Below, in pieces: positions 10,807 to 19,925 of a DNA stretch of 64,000 bases. Below the pieces are notes generated by a model. It was not told where the DNA came from and made no database searches. It saw nothing but the letters and a program-made list of their open reading frames with translations. The DNA is from Bryobacterales bacterium (GTDB lineage: Bacteria; Acidobacteriota; Terriglobia; Bryobacterales; Bryobacteraceae), in contig JBBROU010000007.1 in assembly GCA_038229055.1 (NCBI GenBank), positions 2,101 through 66,100 on the forward strand, in the 5' to 3' direction. The translations under genes were made by a program, and so were the position numbers. How positions within the stretch are numbered: position 1 is the first letter of the stretch; every line of letters begins with the position of its first letter.

Positions 10807-13800
10807 ATGAGCAATTCCATCGGAAATAAAATGATCGCGATCTCGCTTTTGATGTTGGCTGCACTGCGGGCGCAGTCGAATAAGATCGACCTGACGAACT
10901 GGGGCGCGATTACGGCGCCGGTGTTCGGGACAGCGGAGAAGGGCGTTTATTCGAGCGCGGAGCTGTTTGCAGGCCCCAACAAATTCGGATCCTACTACAG
11001 CGGGGTTTTGCCGAACGGGCGCATCGTGAAGCCGGCGGGGACAAGCATCCAGATCGGGATGAATCCTCTGGGCGCGGCACTGACTCCCGACGGGCATTAT
11101 CTGATTACGAGCAACGACGATGAACGCGAAGGGAAGATCACTTCGTACCAGAGCTCGATGAATATTGGCGGGTATTCGCTTTCGGTGATCGACACGAAGA
11201 CGATGACCGTGGTGTCGCAAACGGGGGCGGTTGGAAAGTTTTTCATCGGGCTGCAAGCGACGGGAAGCGGGCCGTATACCGTGTGGGCGTCGGGCGGGGC
11301 GGATCAGGACGTGAAGATATTTACGGTGTCGGCGACGGGGACGATTGCGGCTGCGACGCCGGCGCACATTGTAATTAGCCCGATTACGCCGGCGACCTCG
11401 GGATATGCGACCAACTATACGCCGGGCGCCGCGCTGAACACGGCCGATGCGAACGGAAACAAGCCTCCGCTTCCATCGGGATTCGGGAGCCGGACGGCGG
11501 CAACGAAGATCACCTTTCCCGCGGGATCGGCACTGAGCCCGGACGGCAAGTGGCTCTATGTGGCGTGCAACGGGGACAACAGCGTAGCGGTGATCGACAC
11601 GACGGCGATGACGGTGGTGAAACAAGTGCCGGTGGGATATTTTCCTTACGGCGTTTCGGTGAGTCCCTCGGGTGCCAAGGTGCTGGTCGCAAATTGGGGT
11701 ATTGAGGAATACAAGTTTTTCGCTCCGGGATACGATGCGGCGGGGAATCTCAATTCGGTCGGAGTCGCACCGAACAATCTTCCGGACGGGTTCTATGTTC
11801 CGCCTACCGACACGCAGGGCACGAATCCGAAGACATCGTCGGTAACGGTTCTGATCGCGCCGGCGGGAAATGGCGCGGCGCTTACGACTTCGCAAGCTGT
11901 GTACGAGGGGCTGCCGCTCGACGCGCTGAATCAGGTTGGCGATACACATCCTTCGGCGACGGCCATCGTGAAACACGGCTCGCTCGAAGTGCTGTATGTT
12001 GCCAAGACCAACGTGGATGCGCTGGGAATGGTGGTGGTGAATAACAACCGCAAGCTGCCCGATTTCGATCTGACGCCACTGACATTCGCGCAAAGCCAGC
12101 ATTCGCGGCTGGATGGCGCGTATCCGAATGCGATGGCGGTTTCGCCCGATAACAATCGCTTATATGTCACAGAGGCGGGGCTGAATTCAGTGGCGGTGAT
12201 CGACGTATCCAATGCGGCACAGCCGAAGCTGTTGGGAAGGCTCGGCACGGGATGGTATCCGACGGCGATTGTGGTGAGCCCGGATGGCGATACTTTGTAT
12301 GTGGCCAACGCCAAGGGCGTCGGGGAGGACATCAATCCGAATACAAATACAGGAACAGGCACAGCTCCGCCGACGGGGTTGGCTTCGGACTCACGCGTCG
12401 ATAGCAACTATATCTTCGGTTCGCTGCAGAAGATCAATTTGACGAGCACATCTTACGACGGCACGACGGTGATCGGACAGAATTTCGCCTTCAATCCTCC
12501 GGCGGACACTTCGGTGGTTCCGGTTGGCGGCGCGGCGTCCTCGAAGATTAAGCATGTCGTATTTATCCTGAAAGAGAACAAGACATTCGATTCGATGCTG
12601 GGCAATCTGGGAAGCCACTTCGGACCGTTCGCCAGCATGAGCTTCAACGACCAGACGGGCGCGGCTTACACAAATGGGCAGTACACGGGAGTTTCCGTGA
12701 ATTTGCAGACACTGGCGTCGAAGTTCGCGGCGGCGGTGAACTACTATTCCGATTCCGAAGAGAGCGACGCGGGCCACCAGTTTGCGGCGTCGGGCACGGC
12801 CTCGGATTATACGGAAAAGACGCTGTTGGTGAAGGGGGGACGCGGGCTGCTGGTGGCCAAGAACTTCGAACCGGAAGACTATCCGGCGGGTGGGTACATC
12901 TTCAACAATGCGGCGCGCAATCGCGTGAGCTTTAAAGATTACGGCGCGCTGATCCGCATTGTTGGAACCGACACGGGCGGAAGCGTACCGTCGACGATCG
13001 ACGACCCAACGAGCGGCCTGCTGGGTTATCCATTGCTACAGGCGGACAAGTTCAGCGTGACCAATCCGCTGCAAAACGGCGGCGATGTGGACAGCGAGAC
13101 GCAGGGGCTGGGGCAGACCTATGCGCTGAAGCTGCCGATTCTGGCGGTGCTGGGGCAGAACAATCCAAACGGCGAGCCGCACTTAGACGAATATTATCCG
13201 GGGTATAACTTCAACATTTCCGACCAGCGGCGGGCGGAAGAGTTCAATGCCGATTTTGACACGATGGTGGATTTGGGGACGCTTCCACAGTTCCTGTATG
13301 TCTATCTGCCGAACGATCACACGGGTGGAGTAACGGCGCCGAATGCAGCGACGGTGGGCAGTTCGCCGCTGCAACAGATTGCCGACGGGGACGTGGCGCT
13401 GGGAATGGTGGTGAACCACATCATGAACAGCCCGGTGTATTACGACGCGGCTTCCGACACGGGGACGGCTATTTTCGTGACATGGGACGACGCGCAATCG
13501 TCACTCGATCACATTCATCCGCACCGGACGCCGATGGTGGCAATCGGCCCATATGTGAAGCCGGGTTACATAGCGGCGAAGCATTATTCAACGGCGTCGA
13601 TTGTGAAGACTGAGGAGCTGCTGCTGGGGCTGCCGCCGAATAACCTGGGCGATTTATTCGCGACGGATCTGCGGGATATGTTCCAGCCGACTTACAACGG
13701 GATTACCGCGGCGGATGTACCGGTGACGCGCGCGAAGGTATTCGTATCGTATGAAGGCCGGCAGATCTGGAAGCTGGTAAAGAAGCTGGACACTTCGGCG

Positions 13801-13989
13801 CCGGATCGGGACAGCTCTCGGCTGGGAGCGCTGACGCGGCTTTCGGTGGAGGCGGACAATCTGCATCGGAGCGCGGTGAAGCAGCGGAAATTGGGCACGG
13901 CGGGCTATCGGAAGCGGCAGGCGGCGCTGTATGAACAGGCGCTGAAGGTAGCGAATTCGGATAAGCCGAAGGACGACGACGACCGGTAG
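10807..13989 (+). CDS. secreted fusion of YncE/YVTN beta-propeller and phosphoesterase (PLC/AcpA) family domains
   Basis: Signal peptide. Repeated motifs of the form SPDG..LYV…N..SVAVID (e.g. LSPDGKWLYVACNGDNSVAVIDTTAMTVV). The phosphoesterase N-terminal signature IKHVVFILKENKTFDSMLG and later …YVYLPNDHTGG, WDDAQSSLDH follow. Confidence 0.8.
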   Translation: MSNSIGNKMIAISLLMLAALRAQSNKIDLTNWGAITAPVFGTAEKGVYSSAELFAGPNKFGSYYSGVLPNGRIVKPAGTSIQIGMNPLGAALTPDGHYLITSNDDEREGKITSYQSSMNIGGYSLSVIDTKTMTVVSQTGAVGKFFIGLQATGSGPYTVWASGGADQDVKIFTVSATGTIAAATPAHIVISPITPATSGYATNYTPGAALNTADANGNKPPLPSGFGSRTAATKITFPAGSALSPDGKWLYVACNGDNSVAVIDTTAMTVVKQVPVGYFPYGVSVSPSGAKVLVANWGIEEYKFFAPGYDAAGNLNSVGVAPNNLPDGFYVPPTDTQGTNPKTSSVTVLIAPAGNGAALTTSQAVYEGLPLDALNQVGDTHPSATAIVKHGSLEVLYVAKTNVDALGMVVVNNNRKLPDFDLTPLTFAQSQHSRLDGAYPNAMAVSPDNNRLYVTEAGLNSVAVIDVSNAAQPKLLGRLGTGWYPTAIVVSPDGDTLYVANAKGVGEDINPNTNTGTGTAPPTGLASDSRVDSNYIFGSLQKINLTSTSYDGTTVIGQNFAFNPPADTSVVPVGGAASSKIKHVVFILKENKTFDSMLGNLGSHFGPFASMSFNDQTGAAYTNGQYTGVSVNLQTLASKFAAAVNYYSDSEESDAGHQFAASGTASDYTEKTLLVKGGRGLLVAKNFEPEDYPAGGYIFNNAARNRVSFKDYGALIRIVGTDTGGSVPSTIDDPTSGLLGYPLLQADKFSVTNPLQNGGDVDSETQGLGQTYALKLPILAVLGQNNPNGEPHLDEYYPGYNFNISDQRRAEEFNADFDTMVDLGTLPQFLYVYLPNDHTGGVTAPNAATVGSSPLQQIADGDVALGMVVNHIMNSPVYYDAASDTGTAIFVTWDDAQSSLDHIHPHRTPMVAIGPYVKPGYIAAKHYSTASIVKTEELLLGLPPNNLGDLFATDLRDMFQPTYNGITAADVPVTRAKVFVSYEGRQIWKLVKKLDTSAPDRDSSRLGALTRLSVEADNLHRSAVKQRKLGTAGYRKRQAALYEQALKVANSDKPKDDDDR

Positions 13990-13990
13990 G

Positions 13991-14521
13991 TCAGCGGGCA
14001 TTTCTGTTGTGAGCCGCCGATTTGGCGCCCAGATTCCGTTGCAGAATTTCGCGAACCTGGAGAAGATCGTCGGGCGCAAGGGCCCGCTTCGGGATCAGGT
14101 TGAAGATATTTGACTGGGGATAGAGCAGGAACAGGTGTTTCGATTCTGTGTATCTTGCAAACGCACTCCAGTTGAAATTGCTGCTGCCATTCGGACCGGC
14201 GAACACTATCCCCGAGTCGGAGATGACCGTCTCCGTTTGAGGAAGCTTTGCAAAATCGCGTTTGAACGCGAACCTGGCCAACAGTCGCAGACGTAATGCC
14301 AAACCTAGTCCGATAAGGATCGGAATGGCCGATTGCGCATATTGTGCCCCCGGAAGGAACATCTGCATCATTCCGCCGGCGATCAAGAATACGCCGAATC
14401 CTTGAATCAACCTGGACAATATCCCCTCGTGGCGAGTCTGGGCTTCAAGAAGGTCTTTCTCAGTGAGACTGTAAATAGCTCGAACCTCAGGGCCGGTTTG
14501 ACTTGGCATCGCAGAATTCAT
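13991..14521 (-). CDS. YcxB-like (bPH-type) membrane protein
   Basis: Two central TM helices (GFGVFLIAGGMMQMF, AIPILIGLGLALRL) are followed by …NWSAFARYTESKHLFLLYPQSNIFNLIPKRAL, typical of YcxB-like domains. Confidence 0.55.
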   Translation of the reverse strand: MNSAMPSQTGPEVRAIYSLTEKDLLEAQTRHEGILSRLIQGFGVFLIAGGMMQMFLPGAQYAQSAIPILIGLGLALRLRLLARFAFKRDFAKLPQTETVISDSGIVFAGPNGSSNFNWSAFARYTESKHLFLLYPQSNIFNLIPKRALAPDDLLQVREILQRNLGAKSAAHNRNAR

Positions 14522-14580
14522 AACGGTGTATTGTACGCCGGAGCGGTAAAGTGTGATTCAATCTGTCGAGGGCCGGCAAC

Positions 14581-16191
14581 ATGTCTCCAACAGGCAAGCT
14601 CCGCATTGCACGCGCGGCATGGATCGCATCCGTGATGATGGCGGCCGGCAGCGGCTCGGCGATCTATACAATGGCGCAGAGCAACCCCGTGGGGATCGTC
14701 ATCCTGGATCAATTAGGACCGGGTTACCGGGCCTACTGGGTTCTTGGAATCTCTTTACTGCTGTCGTTCGCGATCTCGATTTTCTTGCGGCATCGGATTC
14801 TCATAGCGCGGCAACATCGAAACGAACTAACAGCCGAACTGTTGCTGGAAAACCTGCGCGAGGACAAACCGGTAGCCTGTAAAGAGTTCTTCGTCTATCT
14901 GCGGTCATTCGAAACAACGGGCCACCTGAAGCCGCCCTTCTTTTTTACGATGGCGGTACTCGGACGGCTGCACACCAATGAGCTGGAGTCTTTTCTGGCG
15001 TTATCGCTCGAAAAGAAGGGGCCGCTGGTTGCTTTGGGGCTACCCGGAGAGAGTGTCGGGGCTGCACGCATCCACGTGGACGATACGACTTGGAAGGACG
15101 ATATTCAGCGGCTACTGACCCACGCGAGCGGCTTGCTGGTGGTGCCGTCGGCGCACGAGGGGACTAAGTGGGAGATTGAATTACTACAGAAAGACGACTT
15201 ACTCAAGAAAGCGGTTTTCATCATGCCGCCGAAGACTCGACAGTTCGACTGGCGAGTGAGGTGGGAGCAAGCAAGTCAGTCGTTGAGAGAATTCTCGATC
15301 ACCCTGCCTGAGTACAACGAACGGGGCCTGCTGTTCAGACTTGATGAACAAGGCCAGGTAGCCGACGCGCGCATGTTCTCGCTGATGTTTCGCCGCTCCA
15401 TTCGTAAGTCTATCGAAGCGTTGTTAAAGGGCGCGCGCGAGAATCGTTCCGGCTCAGATGCGATCCGGAAGGCAAACCGCCGCGCTCGCATGGTTTGGTT
15501 CTATGGCACATGGGTTAGCTCCTTCGGTTCACTGATCGCGACTCCGATCATGCTCTGGTTTGCCATCCACGCCTTTCTTTCCGGGCGTGTTCCGCGAGCC
15601 GTGGATACGTCACCTCCGTGGTCTACGTTTACCGATCGCTATGACAGTGCCGAAGAAGTGAACAGCGCTCAAGGGCTCCTCGGCAAGGAAATCTTTTTTA
15701 GAAGCCATCGTTGGTTGTCCGAGAGCGAGATCGATCAATTGGCCAAGCAGGGGCTGTTGCGTGTCGATGAAATGGACCGAGAGCTTTATCAATTCGGTTT
15801 TGGCGAGATGCTCTCGCTTGCGCCAAATGAACACGTATGCGCCGCTTTGGCGGAAGGCAGGGCCTCTGAATTGGACCGTATCAGAACGCTGGTGACGATG
15901 CCGAGTCATGACGTGAACCTTTGGATGAGTGCGCGGGAGAAAGCGGCCAGGGCCGCGGCTAGAGACTTGCCTTTGGTCGCAGGGATCGGAGAGCCTGGAG
16001 CCGATCTAAAGGAAGCTATCTCAGCGGTCCTCGGCAGGCAAGGCGGCATTGATTTGGAGGACCTGTTGACGGCCGGACGCAAGTTGACTGAAGAGGAGAC
16101 TTGCCGGCTTGGGATTGCGGGCGCAACTGCCGTCTACCGGCTGCGCGAGCCCTATCGGGCGCAATTATCCACGGTGTTGGCGAGCCGGTAA
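14581..16191 (+). CDS. polytopic membrane protein with central Rossmannoid (TIR/NDT-like?) module; function unknown
   Basis: ATG start. TM helices near aa 10-30, 50-70 and ~310-345. The soluble block at aa ~100-220 shows a beta/alpha periodicity: FFVYLRSFE … PLVALGLPGE … ARIHVDD … GLLVVPSAHEGTKWEIELL … AVFIMPP. No family recognised with certainty. Confidence 0.6.
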   Translation: MSPTGKLRIARAAWIASVMMAAGSGSAIYTMAQSNPVGIVILDQLGPGYRAYWVLGISLLLSFAISIFLRHRILIARQHRNELTAELLLENLREDKPVACKEFFVYLRSFETTGHLKPPFFFTMAVLGRLHTNELESFLALSLEKKGPLVALGLPGESVGAARIHVDDTTWKDDIQRLLTHASGLLVVPSAHEGTKWEIELLQKDDLLKKAVFIMPPKTRQFDWRVRWEQASQSLREFSITLPEYNERGLLFRLDEQGQVADARMFSLMFRRSIRKSIEALLKGARENRSGSDAIRKANRRARMVWFYGTWVSSFGSLIATPIMLWFAIHAFLSGRVPRAVDTSPPWSTFTDRYDSAEEVNSAQGLLGKEIFFRSHRWLSESEIDQLAKQGLLRVDEMDRELYQFGFGEMLSLAPNEHVCAALAEGRASELDRIRTLVTMPSHDVNLWMSAREKAARAAARDLPLVAGIGEPGADLKEAISAVLGRQGGIDLEDLLTAGRKLTEEETCRLGIAGATAVYRLREPYRAQLSTVLASR

Positions 16192-16192
16192 T

Positions 16193-17302
16193 TCAGCCGT
16201 CATACCCGAGGGCTTCGGCTTTCGCGAAATCGGCTTGGGCACCGGCGCGATCGTTTAACTTCTGCTTGGCCCGAGCCCGGTATTGATGGGCATACGAGTC
16301 CTCCGGATCGATTCGGATGGCTTGGTTGAAATCGGCTAACGCTTCGGGAAACATCTTGAGCTCGTGATGCGAGTGACCGCGCCAGAGATGCGCGGTGAGG
16401 ATATCGGGCTGCTTGTCAATAGCCGCGGTGAAATCGAGAATAGCCCCGCGGTGTTGGCCATGGCGATTGGCTATGAATCCGCGTGCGACGTATGCCTCGG
16501 CGAGGTCCTGGTTGATTCGCAGGGCGTGATCGTAGTCTTCCAGCGCGCGGCGCTCATCATCCATTTGGGCGTAACATTCCCCGCGTTGGAAATAGGCGAA
16601 TGCGTCTTCGGGTTCGATTTCAATGGCGCGATTGAAATCCTTCAAGGCGTCCTTCTTCCGGCCGGCGGAGAGCAACAGCAGGGCTCGCTCGATCCACGCC
16701 GGGAAGAAGTTCCGATTACTCTGAATTGCGGCGTCGAAACTCTGGAGAGCCGAATCGAGGTGCCCGAGGTTACCGTGTGCAACGCCAAGGTTGACCAGCG
16801 CGAAGAGATCGCCCGGATTCTTCGCAATGAAACGATTGAGCGGGACAATGGCAGCCGAGGGGCGGGTGTGGGCGGCGTGGTCGCGCATGGCTGAGGCCAG
16901 CTTTTCGTAGCCGTCGGGCTGAAACAGGTCAGTCCATTCGCGATCCGACAAAGTTTTCGGAATTACACACTCTTCGAGTCGGACCGGCACGAGAAGAATC
17001 GAACTTTTGGCTTTCTTTTTCGCCTCCGCCAGAGCCAGCTCGATCTCTTTGGTGACGTAGCCCGCCTTCGAATTGACGCGACGCGAGAGGCAGATGAGGA
17101 CGGCATCCGAACCTTTGATCGCCTCCTCAATGAAGTCTTCCCAACGCTGTCCGTGCGGAATGGCCTCAATGTCCAGCCAGGGCCAGAATCCATCCTCCCG
17201 CAATCGGTCATGCAACTCTTTGATTACCTTTTTGTCCTTCGACCGATGACAAAGAAAAACTTTCAATCCATCCGATTGGTAAGAATCGGCTTGGCGGGTC
17301 AT
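16193..17302 (-). CDS. TIR domain protein with C-terminal TPR repeats
   Basis: TIR block: KVFLCHRSKDKKVIKELHDRLREDGFWPWLD…GQRWEDFIEEAIKGSDAVLICLS…AGYVTKEIELA. The candidate catalytic Glu is at aa ~86. About 6 TPR units follow (…AYFQRGECYAQMDDERRALEDYDHALRINQDLAEAYVARG…). I chose the ATG at 17302 because it forms an ATGA overlap with the upstream stop. The 71 codons further upstream are Arg/Pro-rich and lie inside the upstream gene. Confidence 0.85.
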   Translation of the reverse strand: MTRQADSYQSDGLKVFLCHRSKDKKVIKELHDRLREDGFWPWLDIEAIPHGQRWEDFIEEAIKGSDAVLICLSRRVNSKAGYVTKEIELALAEAKKKAKSSILLVPVRLEECVIPKTLSDREWTDLFQPDGYEKLASAMRDHAAHTRPSAAIVPLNRFIAKNPGDLFALVNLGVAHGNLGHLDSALQSFDAAIQSNRNFFPAWIERALLLLSAGRKKDALKDFNRAIEIEPEDAFAYFQRGECYAQMDDERRALEDYDHALRINQDLAEAYVARGFIANRHGQHRGAILDFTAAIDKQPDILTAHLWRGHSHHELKMFPEALADFNQAIRIDPEDSYAHQYRARAKQKLNDRAGAQADFAKAEALGYDG

Positions 17303-18627
17303 GGGCGGATTAGAGCTTCGAGTTGAACGACGATCCGGAGGAGTTCGCCGCGGCGCGGTTCTTCGAACAGGGCGGCGGCGGTTCGGCAATCGGCGAGCGT
17401 GGTTTCCAGCTTCCAGGCGGATGGACCTTCGACGGCTATTTGGCTGGCAAGTTCCTGGGCTTTCTCGACGTCGCCGGCGTCGAATGCCGAACCGAGGAGG
17501 GTCGGGTTCAGCCATTCGTCGCTCGACTTACGGGTGCGGGCGCGCTCGCAGGCGATCAGGGTGACAGCGCCGGAGACACGAGCCTTGTCATCGTCGCCTT
17601 TCCGGTTGCGCGTGCGATAGAGCCGGGCCAGGTTGGAAGACGGGTAGTAATCATTGAGATCGAGCTTCATGCCGTTCTCATATTCGGCGATGGCGCGGTC
17701 GAGGTCGACGGGATTTTTGGAGGCGCTCCACCTTTTCTTATAGCGGCCGCCAAGAAGGCCGCGGCGTTCGGATGTGTCTCCGGCGCTCGCGATGAGCTCG
17801 CGGAGGGCCCCGATTGCGGTCTCGTGATCGCCCGATTTGGATAAGGCGAGGGCACGCTGCTCTTTGATGAGGGACGAGTTGCGGAGGTCATCGGGCAGAC
17901 TGTCGATGAACTGCAAGGTGGTGGTCCAATCGGTGCAGTCGCGGAGGGTGTAGAGAAGCTCGACGGCGACGGCTTTCTGAATGGGGCCGCCGGTGAAGTA
18001 GCGTTTCTGGAGATCGAGCGCGCGGATGCGGCATTCATCTCCGGTGGCAGCGCGAGCGGCGATGATTTCGGCTTGAAACTGAGAGAGCTCTTCGAGACTT
18101 TTCTTGAACGAAGCGCCGCGAAGAACCTCGAATTCAGGGTACTTGGGGAAGACCTGATAGAACGGAGAATCGCCCTCGCGCATGATGGGGATGGCGGCGA
18201 CCATGATGTTTATGATCTGCGCGGCAACTTCGTCGGAGATGGATTCGGTGGGCAGGGGATAGCGAATCTGGCGCATCTGGTCGACGTCGAAGAGCGGCTT
18301 GGACCAATCGGCGGCGGTCAGAATGCAGCCCCTTTGCTGAGCGGCGTGTCGAATGCCAACTTCGTAGTAGACATTGCCGTTGGGGATGGAAAGGTCGGCG
18401 AGCACCAGGTCCGAGATGGCGAGGCGCTCAATCATTTCAGTGATGATGAGCGCGCCGATATCTTCGTTGGCGCGCACGGGTTCGTAGCCGGCCTTAGCAA
18501 TGGCGGGACGGAGGGCGGCCTCCCAGAGACGATCGAAGTTGACCTTATCGGGCGCCGCACTGCCGGGCGGCGCGGAAGTCGCCTTCGTGCTGTACGGCAT
18601 GATCATGAAGCAGATTGGTTGTGGCAT
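17299..18627 (-). CDS. nucleoside 2-deoxyribosyltransferase-like (TIR-like Rossmannoid) domain fused to DUF4071 / ASK(MAP3K)-type TPR region
   Basis: N-terminus CFMIMPYS…FDRLWEAALRPAIAKAGYEPVRANED…ISDLVLADLSIPNGNVYYEVGIRHA fits the bacterial NDT-like pattern (MPF…D.viaDlt..N.NV.YE.G.aha). C-terminus …RRGLLGGRYKKRW…LDRAIAEYENGMKLDLNDYYPSSNLARLY matches my recollection of Pfam PF13281 (DUF4071 / TRAFs-binding). Confidence 0.7.
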   Translation of the reverse strand: MPQPICFMIMPYSTKATSAPPGSAAPDKVNFDRLWEAALRPAIAKAGYEPVRANEDIGALIITEMIERLAISDLVLADLSIPNGNVYYEVGIRHAAQQRGCILTAADWSKPLFDVDQMRQIRYPLPTESISDEVAAQIINIMVAAIPIMREGDSPFYQVFPKYPEFEVLRGASFKKSLEELSQFQAEIIAARAATGDECRIRALDLQKRYFTGGPIQKAVAVELLYTLRDCTDWTTTLQFIDSLPDDLRNSSLIKEQRALALSKSGDHETAIGALRELIASAGDTSERRGLLGGRYKKRWSASKNPVDLDRAIAEYENGMKLDLNDYYPSSNLARLYRTRNRKGDDDKARVSGAVTLIACERARTRKSSDEWLNPTLLGSAFDAGDVEKAQELASQIAVEGPSAWKLETTLADCRTAAALFEEPRRGELLRIVVQLEALIRP

Positions 18628-18710
18628 AGGGCGAGACTCGATGCAGGGTCAAGTTTATCGCGACGGATGATAGCGGCGGAAGGCAATGAGCGATCACATA
18701 TAATTCGGGG

Positions 18711-19925
18711 GTGACTTCTCAACCTTCGGAAACTCGCAGGGATCTGTTTCGCAATGTGGCGGGCAGTGCGGCGATGGCGCTGACGGCGGCTTCGTATTCG
18801 CGCGTGATGGGGGCGAATGATCGCGTCGCGCTCGGCGTGATCGGGTGCGGATCGCGCGGCAAATATGTCACTGGATACTTCCAGAAAAATGCGGCGGTGC
18901 AGGTGGCGGCACTTTGCGATGTCTATGCGCAGCGCATCGACGAAGCGCTGCAGAAGTTTCCCGGGGCGAAGAGCTTCGACGACCATCGCAAGCTGCTCGA
19001 GATGCGCGGGATCGACGCGGTGTATATCGCGACGCCGGATCACTGGCACGCGGGGTGCGCGATTGATGCGCTAAATGCGGGGAAAGATGTCTACGTCGAA
19101 AAGCCGCTAACGCTGCGGATTGACGAAGGGCCGCCGATTGTGAAGGCCGCGCGCGTGAACAATCGAATTTGCCAGGTCGGAATGCAGCGGCGGTCGAGTC
19201 CGGCGTATCTGCAAGCTAAGCGGGACTTCGTGCAAACGGGGCGGCTGGGCAAGGTGACTATGACGCGCACGTGGTGGCATGGAAACGGGGCGCACCTGCA
19301 GAAGGCTCCGCCCGCGCTGGCGCAGCAGCCGTCGAATTTAAACTGGGCACGGTTCCTGGGGCCGGTGAAGTGGCGCGATTGGGATCCGCAGCAGTTCTGG
19401 AATTTTCGCGCGTACCTGGATTTCGGCGGCGGCCAGGTGACGGATCTGTTCACGCACTGGGTGGACGTGGCGCACATGTTCCTGGGAAAGGAAGTGCCGA
19501 CGTCGGCGGTGGCCGCGGGGGGCGTGTACCACTATAAAGACGGTCGCACGGCACCGGACACGGTGAGCGTGCTGCTGGAATATCCGGACGAGTTCAATGT
19601 GACGTTCGACGCAACGCTGGCGCCGAGCGTGACCGGGACCGGGATGGAGATGTGCGGGACCGAAGGACGCATTCGCGTGACGGACAAGATCGAGTTTCTG
19701 CCGGTGGGCAAGGGCGCGCAGGCGGAGGTGATCAAGTTCGAGGGCGAGGACACGGTGGCGCACGTGAACAATTTCATCGATTGCGTGAAGTCGCGCAAGC
19801 TGCCGAACGCGGATGTGTTGATTGGGCACCGGTCAGCGCAGGCGTCGCATCTGGGGAACATCGCGTATGTGGAGAAGCGGCGGATCAAGTTCGATTCTGT
19901 GCGCGAAGAAATTCAGCCGTTGTAA
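18711..19925 (+). CDS. Gfo/Idh/MocA family oxidoreductase (Tat-exported)
   Basis: Tat motif TRRDLFRNVAGSAAMALTA. Rossmann motif RVALGVIGCGSRG. EKPLT motif (VYVEKPLTL). Confidence 0.9.
   Translation: MTSQPSETRRDLFRNVAGSAAMALTAASYSRVMGANDRVALGVIGCGSRGKYVTGYFQKNAAVQVAALCDVYAQRIDEALQKFPGAKSFDDHRKLLEMRGIDAVYIATPDHWHAGCAIDALNAGKDVYVEKPLTLRIDEGPPIVKAARVNNRICQVGMQRRSSPAYLQAKRDFVQTGRLGKVTMTRTWWHGNGAHLQKAPPALAQQPSNLNWARFLGPVKWRDWDPQQFWNFRAYLDFGGGQVTDLFTHWVDVAHMFLGKEVPTSAVAAGGVYHYKDGRTAPDTVSVLLEYPDEFNVTFDATLAPSVTGTGMEMCGTEGRIRVTDKIEFLPVGKGAQAEVIKFEGEDTVAHVNNFIDCVKSRKLPNADVLIGHRSAQASHLGNIAYVEKRRIKFDSVREEIQPL

Follow-up and report, generated by a model that had tools for sequence, protein, structure and literature searches.

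Whether a membrane protein whose gene ends one base from that of a TIR protein takes part in TIR immune signalling is the question raised by the window analysed here, the whole 64,000-nt stretch of a Bryobacterales genome (GCA_038229055.1, contig JBBROU010000007.1, positions 2,101 to 66,100 of the forward strand). The gene, called the target below (14581..16191, plus strand), encodes a 536-residue protein with three transmembrane (TM) helices, delimited from its open reading frame (ORF), its homologs and an AlphaFold2 model; 13 full-length homologs begin at the same Met and back its start codon. As the original prediction had read from the bare sequence, its stop and that of the convergent TIR-TPR gene are 1 nt apart, the TAA at 16189-16191 being followed after a single base by TCA at 16193-16195, the reverse complement of a TGA. 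That prediction further took the soluble part of the protein for a third TIR- or NDT-like module beside two others and proposed the protein as an effector of the neighbouring pair. Our analysis indicates that the target is probably an undescribed partner of Thoeris-type systems, most likely a membrane effector, and not a third TIR domain. What is new here is a family of more than 3000 clusters that unites a TM anchor with a Rossmann-like core and is linked to TIR genes facultatively, but with strong statistical support.

The superfamily and its TIR-linked contexts

An exhaustive phmmer search with the target returned 3024 representative clusters (50% identity) at E<=1e-3, 784 of them at E<=1e-10, with most matches covering only residues ~55-285. 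Word-index homolog searches, made with the domain fragment and then with a diverse profile, recovered few proteins; these are all annotated as 'hypothetical', as are all named superfamily members. The domain founds a large unnamed superfamily that is absent from Pfam, NCBIfam, PADLOC, PDB and BFVD. A typical member has 270-310 residues and consists of one or two N-terminal TM helices followed by the domain, and at least one strong N-terminal TM helix is present in 97 of 109 diverse members. Fusions to N-terminal ankyrin repeats, a C-terminal TM2 domain or a CAAX protease are rare; the ankyrin-repeat and TM2 fusions are found among P0082, P0098, P0159 and the locus L018:9179-10651, and the C-terminal TM2 (PF05154) occurs in a member from genome G268. 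The ~540-residue architecture of the target, with a third TM helix and an outside domain, characterizes a small subfamily of 13 homologs in 5.8 billion proteins, and the only further relatives among 185,579 species genomes are four, all from metagenome-assembled genomes of Gammaproteobacteria. In the window's phylum the domain occurs in 4 of 401 genomes, none of them from other genera of the window's family. Plasmid or phage carriage of the family yielded no tblastn match.

TIR or DUF4071/TPR-S genes lie within a few kb of a family member in 7 of 37 non-redundant contexts (clusters at 60% identity, plus the window); where 5 kb or more of flank is available, the count is 5 of 22. The phylum sample, with 52 TIR_2 genes in 264 Mb, sets a background at which only ~0.06 TIR genes would be expected in the 298 kb of flanking DNA (Poisson P(>=5) = 5e-9). 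Scanning metagenome contigs without regard to neighbouring genes contributed 57 more loci, in which every ORF was then searched and TIR matches were confirmed with Pfam. On the maximum-likelihood tree the TIR-linked label requires eight changes for eight rows and appears in both deep clades, which indicates that the association recurs across unrelated genomes and does not stem from one hitch-hiking event. The other neighbours of family members are mostly housekeeping genes with few PADLOC matches, so the signal appears TIR-specific rather than a product of general defence-island clustering. At the genome level, all nine family-bearing genomes tested encode TIR_2 genes (1-16 each, mean 7.3), as compared with 17 of 61 genomes in the phylum sample (mean 0.8). 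Collectively, these results link the family statistically to TIR immune signalling, which works through messengers derived from nicotinamide adenine dinucleotide (NAD). The linkage is facultative, at about 20% of contexts; the co-occurrence with TIR and DUF4071 genes that the original prediction anticipated is above chance, but most homologs stand alone.

The TIR partners are diverse in architecture and arrangement. On one sediment metagenome contig (L128), a family member, a ThsB_TIR gene and a SLATT_1/DUF4231 gene follow one another on the same strand, that is, a type VII Thoeris pair joined by a family member. In L001 a DUF4071/TPR-S gene precedes member P0014 on the same strand, with 244 nt between the two. 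The gammaproteobacterial members in L093 and L094 stand between a gene for a TIR-FGE-sulfatase protein and a second TIR gene, beside a DUF3427 helicase. In L122 a TPR-S protein followed by TIR_2, a pair of the same type as in the window, is found ~3 kb from the member, together with another TIR_2 gene. The remaining cases comprise a convergent TIR_2 gene (L149), a TIR-WD40 gene (L160), a divergent TIR-RicinB gene 15 nt away (L127), and a caspase gene with a weak TIR match (L108). Relative to its TIR or DUF4071 neighbour, the family gene is adjacent and convergent in the window and co-directional in L128 (ThsB and SLATT) and L001 (DUF4071).

The gene content of these loci was recorded as well. 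L128:742-2807, with a GC content of 40%, encodes a 329-residue member with two TM helices, a ThsB_TIR protein of 143 residues and a SLATT_1/DUF4231 protein of 145 residues. L001:195-11012, which looks like an integrative defence island, carries a DUF4062 gene (408 residues), two small unknowns, a patatin gene, the DUF4071/TPR-S gene, the member, two phage-integrase genes and a DUF3987 gene. Around the members in L093:5099-14611 and L094:5139-6734 are genes for TIR_2-FGE-sulfatase, a TIR_2/ThsB-like protein of 350 residues, rhodanese and DUF3427 with Helicase_C; the genome of L093 (G417) contains 14 TIR_2 genes. L122:3-11136 is rich in TIR genes: a TPR-S/DUF4071-like gene of 703 residues precedes TIR_2 on one strand, and a co-directional run of unknown genes encodes proteins of 436 residues, the member, 129 and 561 residues and then TIR_2, the 436-residue ORF overlapping the start of the member. 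Peptidase_C14 (caspase-like) genes adjoin two members of ~530 residues (L104:3379-4416 and L108:2128-3105), and in L108 the caspase gene is itself adjoined by a weak TIR-like ORF (1053-2078; E=1e-6, from a self-built hidden Markov model only), an arrangement reminiscent of type IV Thoeris. Inherited synteny was considered as a source of the DUF4071 link and rejected, because the DUF4071 proteins of L001 and the window are only 33% identical and are arranged differently, and the closest homolog of the target lacks this neighbour. LOG/NDT loci were tried as a neutral control for TIR density and set aside as not neutral, one LOG gene itself being beside a TIR gene; this LOG-family gene lies ~1 kb from TIR_2 (L066; G017:C2:2204343-2206002), and the two could be a SLOG/TIR pair.

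Full-length family contexts that contain neither TIR nor DUF4071 genes are those of P0005, P0013/P0012, P0011/P0009, P0007, P0004 and P0002, the last being the closest homolog, and the copies from Streptomyces, Solirubrobacterales and elsewhere stand alone. P0013 and P0012, which are related to each other, stand downstream of a conserved HSP70 - HSP70/DUF3731 - DUF2760 cluster (L004:3142-6933 and L007:1919-6932).

The four-gene islet and the effector reading

In the window, the target is one of four genes in an accessory islet (13990..18692) that was delimited by comparison with a same-genus genome (G401) and by GC content at third codon positions (GC3). A divergent gene (13991..14521, minus strand) encodes a YcxB-like membrane protein of 176 residues (PF14317, 1.5e-12). 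Convergent with the target is the TIR_2 and TPR gene (16193..17302, minus strand; TIR_2 3.9e-26, TPR_1 3.7e-31, with PADLOC TIR-family matches), which likely starts at the ATG at 17302, overlapping the stop of the upstream gene by 4 nt. That upstream gene (17299..18627, minus strand) encodes a DUF4071 (MAP3K_TRAF_bd) and TPR-S protein (PF13281 6.2e-11, PF20308 5.7e-19) which, by comparison with a preprint on Thoeris effectors, appears ThsI-like and assignable at the domain level to the type VIII Thoeris effector class. In its whole 5.0-Mb genome the window's organism has one DUF4071 gene and one family member, and the two are 1.1 kb apart.

DNA of G401 matches the window only at 13702-13988 and 18693-19000, with homology ending at ~13989 and ~18693. 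Both genes flanking the islet are present there (90-94% protein identity), on different contigs (C61 and C252) and in each case mid-contig among TonB-receptor, BON and TPR/housekeeping genes, and none of the four islet genes is found. The GC3 values are 0.60 for the YcxB-like gene, 0.66 for the target, 0.67 for the TIR-TPR gene and 0.745 for the DUF4071 gene, with flanks at 0.73-0.80. The absence from G401 and the lower GC3 of three of the genes together indicate that the four genes are species-specific cargo at a synteny breakpoint; gain or loss affected the islet as a whole. Its edges (13990 and 18692) showed no sign of an integrase, tRNA or repeat. The YcxB-like gene was rejected as a conserved partner of the family, being dissimilar to the analogous upstream gene of P0004.

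The reading that we prefer, although tentatively, is that the target represents a new domain family and acts as a signal-responsive membrane effector alongside a type VIII-like Thoeris pair. It draws on the TIR-linked contexts, recurrent on the tree and varied in their partners; on the presence of TIR_2 in every family-bearing genome tested, with the sole DUF4071 gene and the sole member of the window's genome close together; on the absence of the islet as a block from G401 and the similar GC3 of target and TIR-TPR gene; and on the prevalence of N-terminal TM helices among members. There is also precedent, since Thoeris effectors often combine TM helices with a signal-binding domain and two-effector operons occur (bioRxiv 10.64898/2025.12.03.692087). 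Under this reading, the target would have arrived in the genome together with the type VIII-like pair of TIR-TPR and ThsI-like DUF4071/TPR-S genes, on one accessory islet. The protein is predicted to sit in the inner membrane with its N-terminus inside, followed by a TM1-loop-TM2 hairpin, the cytoplasmic Rossmann-like domain, TM3 and an outside helical domain. Upon infection, the TIR protein, presumably that of the window, would make an ADP-ribose-derived messenger; the Rossmann-like domain may bind this putative ligand, and the TM helices could then assemble into oligomers that damage the membrane, the mode of action supposed for the TM-Macro, SLATT and DUF2270 effectors of Thoeris. The proposal of a membrane effector for the neighbouring pair is accordingly strengthened, in that the above-chance linkage and the gain or loss of the islet as a block favour it, although the linkage is facultative.

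Several observations weigh against the effector reading. The target is convergent with the TIR operon and not co-transcribed with it; its closest homolog (65% identity) has no abutting TIR gene; and ~80% of contexts have no TIR gene in the available flank, including six of the eight surveyed full-length-family contexts besides the window and those from Streptomyces and Solirubrobacterales. Moreover, TIR-rich genomes are large soil genomes, so genome size or lifestyle may confound the co-occurrence. The Thoeris pairs of the window and of L128 already own a recognised effector. The domain is unlike the known signal-binding domains SLOG, Macro, SAVED, CARF and STING, its strictly invariant Arg and Glu would be no less expected in a catalytic site than in a binding site, and the outside C-terminal domain is given no role in the effector model.

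Some of these points recur in the alternative that survives best, in which the target is a stand-alone membrane enzyme or envelope sensor independent of TIR, its outside domain sensing and its cytoplasmic domain acting, and in which the islet is no more than a shared variable site. The solo closest homolog, the convergent orientation in the window and the position of the islet at a synteny breakpoint all suit this account, as does the fact that most members are monocistronic, with neighbours such as Rho, H+-PPase, GatB, esterases and transporters; a conserved outside loop and a domain with a Cys pair, described below, also suggest an envelope-facing function. It must nevertheless contend with a TIR adjacency that is ~100-fold above background, extends across the tree and involves many TIR architectures, with the several TIR genes in each of the family-bearing genomes tested, and with the proximity of the window's only DUF4071 gene to its only family member. 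We therefore regard TIR independence as possible but rather unlikely.

Membrane anatomy and the cytoplasmic domain

Two AlphaFold2 models were used, one of the full protein from a 14-sequence family alignment (pLDDT 79) and one of the domain (residues 95-290) from a 110-sequence alignment (pLDDT 89.1, pTM 0.87). The N-terminal helical hairpin (TM1-loop-TM2; 14617..14796, plus strand) is defined by the modelled helices, hydropathy, charge counts and invariant columns. The model places helices at residues 3-32, which hold TM1, at 36-45 (short) and at 50-93, which hold TM2; the two N-terminal TM helices predicted by eye are thus borne out, TM1 (residues ~13-32) being weakly and TM2 (49-72) strongly hydrophobic. 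The intervening loop (33-48) is almost invariant in the full-length family (V40, L42, D43, Q44, G46, P47 and G48). Further on, where several TM helices had been proposed at about residues 310-345, there is a strong one but only one, TM3 at residues 311-335 (15511..15585, plus strand; hydropathy peak 1.74), which lies inside modelled helix 291-333. The expected helical C-terminal domain of ~190 residues is recovered with high model confidence (pLDDT ~90) at residues 345-536 (15613..16188, plus strand); it is all-helical, is predicted from charge bias to be extracytoplasmic, has no structural match in Foldseek with the full model and, together with TM3, is confined to the ~540-residue subfamily. 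Within it, C508 is invariant and C420 is kept in at least 90% of full-length-family sequences, and the two probably form a disulfide. Lys and Arg residues number three before TM1, five after TM2, seven before TM3 and two after TM3, which by the positive-inside rule places the alpha/beta domain in the cytoplasm and both loop 33-48 and the C-terminal domain outside. The near-invariant outside loop and the C420/C508 pair fit this predicted topology.

The soluble block between TM2 and TM3 is modelled as a Rossmann-like alpha/beta sandwich at residues 100-288 (14878..15444, plus strand), as the domain model and invariant columns suggest. Its modelled strands, at residues 104-107 (FFVY), 149-152 (LVAL), 162-164 (ARI), 184-187 (LLVV) and 211-215 (AVFIM), fall on all five beta segments that had been picked by eye, and the model adds a hairpin at 250-265. 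The block is alpha/beta as claimed, but extends over ~190 rather than ~120 residues. Across 110 diverse sequences (~30% identity), R108, F110, G153, W171, P189 and E198 are invariant, and Y106, L107, T113, E136, G156, E157, G160, R163, G194, T195, M215 and P216 nearly so; K210 is nearly invariant in an 18-sequence alignment. The S..G.KWEIE element to which the original prediction drew attention is therefore real, with P189, G194, T195 and E198 invariant or nearly so across the superfamily. In the model, R108, E136, E157, R163, T195, E198 and K210 occupy post-strand loops or the start of the next helix, which are the nucleotide- or ligand-binding positions of Rossmann-like folds, and conservation makes these seven residues a candidate active or binding site.

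Such a site also speaks for a different role, that of a membrane-anchored hydrolase cleaving a TIR product such as cyclic ADP-ribose (cADPR), which would either set the threshold of a Thoeris system or complete NAD depletion. The protein would then be a functional analogue of Raw, an animal transmembrane protein of divergent TIR fold with two catalytic Glu residues that hydrolyses cADPR and has bacterial homologs (PMC13455253); Raw works with dSarm, a TIR enzyme, and with Ask1, whose N-terminal region is a DUF4071 homolog (PMC13455253). The strict invariance of R108 and E198 and the near-invariance of the other five candidate residues are typical of active sites, genes of these three kinds (TIR, DUF4071 and transmembrane protein) are found together in the window, and the TIR link supports a hydrolase as well as it does an effector; since the window and L128 already have an effector, the third gene there could have a regulatory role. 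We nonetheless judge this role unlikely, in that no hydrolase family and no significant TIR similarity (Foldseek, hhalign) was matched, the spacing of Raw F354, C359, E396 and E422 differs from that in the domain (by eye, and compared by description only), and near-universal membrane anchoring has no obvious purpose in a scavenging enzyme.

Searches by sequence placed the target in no described family. Nothing matched at E<=1 in Pfam, NCBIfam or PADLOC, and this includes the Pfam TIR, ThsB_TIR, DUF4062 and NDT families; phmmer and profile searches of PDB sequences gave chance matches only. Foldseek was uninformative with the whole-protein model (best E=0.89) and returned nothing at E<=1e-3 from PDB and BFVD with the domain model. 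The top match of the latter was a CoaB Rossmann-like domain (E=0.017, TM-score 0.44), followed by Csm6-CARF, RCK, methyltransferase and flavodoxin-like folds. TIR structures appeared at ranks 30-31, namely L6 (3ozi; E=0.18, TM-score 0.36/0.41) and EcThsB (8wcf; E=0.18, TM-score 0.34/0.40), and no solved TIR domain was matched by the domain model at a TM-score > 0.5. NDT proteins were found at E~6 (4mcj, full model, Foldseek) and E=0.12 (BFVD, domain model), and LOG at E=0.37 (a phage LOG in BFVD), with none among the top 50 PDB matches.

Profile comparisons were similarly unrevealing. Aligned with hhalign to genome-built profiles (26 sequences for TIR_2 and 27 for LOG), the domain scored 4.3% with TIR, 0.4% with NDT and 0.4% with LOG, and the TIR match (P~0.01) covers 25 columns in the helix-strand-'PS' stretch only; control pairs of TIR, NDT and LOG miss each other too, so the comparison has little power at such distance. 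Single-sequence hhalign against the neighbour's TIR domain (0.8%) sets PS...GT.WEIE opposite the Glu motif S...G..KEIE, and only in this non-significant alignment does E198, which lies in helix 193-204 after strand 184-187, stand opposite the neighbour's TIR Glu. Three specific candidates found no support. For SLOG/LOG, PSxxxGTxWE differs from PGGxGTxxE by one extra residue and lacks a Gly-rich first loop, besides the low hhalign score; for SLATT, the target has no SLATT_1-6 or DUF4231 match at E<=1, with the L128 neighbour as positive control (SLATT_1 3.5e-15, DUF4231 1.3e-23); and for NDT/CMP-hydrolase-like domains (PF05014 and relatives), the Pfam, hhalign, Foldseek and BFVD results given above are all negative.

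The domain is thus Rossmann-like, as the original prediction of a flavodoxin- or TIR-like fold implied, but placing it in TIR, MTH538, NDT or SLOG lacks support; generic Rossmann folds score at least as well as TIR does, and no significant profile or structure match supports a row of three TIR-fold proteins. That the block is a third catalytic domain of TIR/NDT fold, strongly diverged and itself able to cleave NAD or nucleotides, is very improbable, for although the beta-alpha fold, the TIR profile as the best (if non-significant) of the three hhalign matches, the facing Glu motifs and the presence of L6 and EcThsB among the Foldseek matches speak for it, none of the TIR scores is significant, TM-scores to TIR remain below 0.5, dozens of unrelated Rossmann folds outscore TIR and the Pfam TIR, ThsB_TIR, DUF4062 and NDT models are silent.

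Directly 5' of the target ATG lies a conserved 32-nt leader, AAGTGTGATTCAATCTGTCGAGGGCCGGCAAC (14549..14580, plus strand), with a GAGG Shine-Dalgarno-like site inside. It shares 30 of 32 bases with the contig of the closest homolog (L097), where the proteins themselves are only 65% identical, and may have a conserved role in regulation or translation initiation; Rfam contains no match to it. Promoter and terminator scans at the target locus remained at background level.

Comparison with known TIR-dependent systems

Thoeris TIR signalling is known from ~8% of prokaryotic genomes, and about 30 effector types have been predicted for it; new effector or regulator domains have each revealed a new way to read NAD-derived messengers, some of them shared with plants and animals. 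The family described here is a concrete candidate, either for a new kind of membrane effector or for an enzyme that clears the signal, and it may work in trans; the four-gene islet of the window offers a compact construct for experiments.

Many Thoeris effectors are TM proteins, among them TM-Macro (type II), ThsF (type V; DUF2270, three TM helices), ThsG (type VI; DUF6650 with or without TM helices) and ThsH (type VII; SLATT), and the classes '3TM' and '4TM SLOG' were also predicted, functionally untested in that study (Yirmiya et al., bioRxiv 10.64898/2025.12.03.692087). The target resembles these membrane effectors in its TM helices and cytoplasmic domain, its position beside TIR genes and its patchy accessory distribution, and a family member can be present as a putative second effector where a ThsI-type or SLATT effector is already encoded. 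It differs from them in matching none of Macro, SLOG, SLATT, DUF2270 or DUF6650 by sequence or fold, in a TIR linkage that is facultative and not the rule, and in the third TM helix and outside helical domain that the target's subfamily adds. By TIR cluster, the '3TM' class falls together with types VII and VIII (bioRxiv 10.64898/2025.12.03.692087).

Type VIII Thoeris consists of a TIR protein and ThsI, which has a CMP-hydrolase-like domain and a TPR, the latter as predicted by Aravind's group, and uses canonical cADPR as its signal, the same as type VII with its SLATT effector ThsH; rare operons hold both ThsH and ThsI (bioRxiv 10.64898/2025.12.03.692087). At the domain level, the window's pair of TIR and DUF4071/TPR-S genes corresponds to this system, and the rare operons that add a membrane effector parallel the presence of the target. 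Unlike in type VIII, however, the window's TIR protein is a TIR_2-TPR fusion and not a short ThsB, and the target is convergent, lies outside the operon and has not been described as one of its components.

RCK/KTN-gated channels and CARF/SAVED-TM effectors (Cam1, Cap14/15) likewise couple a cytoplasmic alpha/beta domain, nucleotide-binding in those cases, to membrane helices. The Foldseek E-values for RCK and Csm6-CARF (0.03-0.2) are non-significant, however, no channel signature is present in the target, and the family lacks CRISPR, CBASS or Pycsar neighbours.

Raw/OLRN-1 differs from the target in possessing two TIR domains and two dimerisation domains, and the target has no significant TIR similarity. 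The likeness is one of arrangement, in that the target too is a membrane protein with a divergent Rossmannoid domain and an invariant Glu, encoded next to the genes of a TIR enzyme and an Ask1-type DUF4071 module. That the islet corresponds, in a prokaryote, to the cADPR module formed by dSarm, Ask1 and Raw in animals, with a TIR protein as maker, the DUF4071/TPR-S protein as responder and the transmembrane protein as hydrolase or sensor, is a conjecture that we consider quite unlikely. If it were true, the superfamily would constitute a widespread membrane-bound reader or eraser of TIR-derived nucleotides that operates largely in trans, which would account for the many 'solo' copies in TIR-rich genomes.

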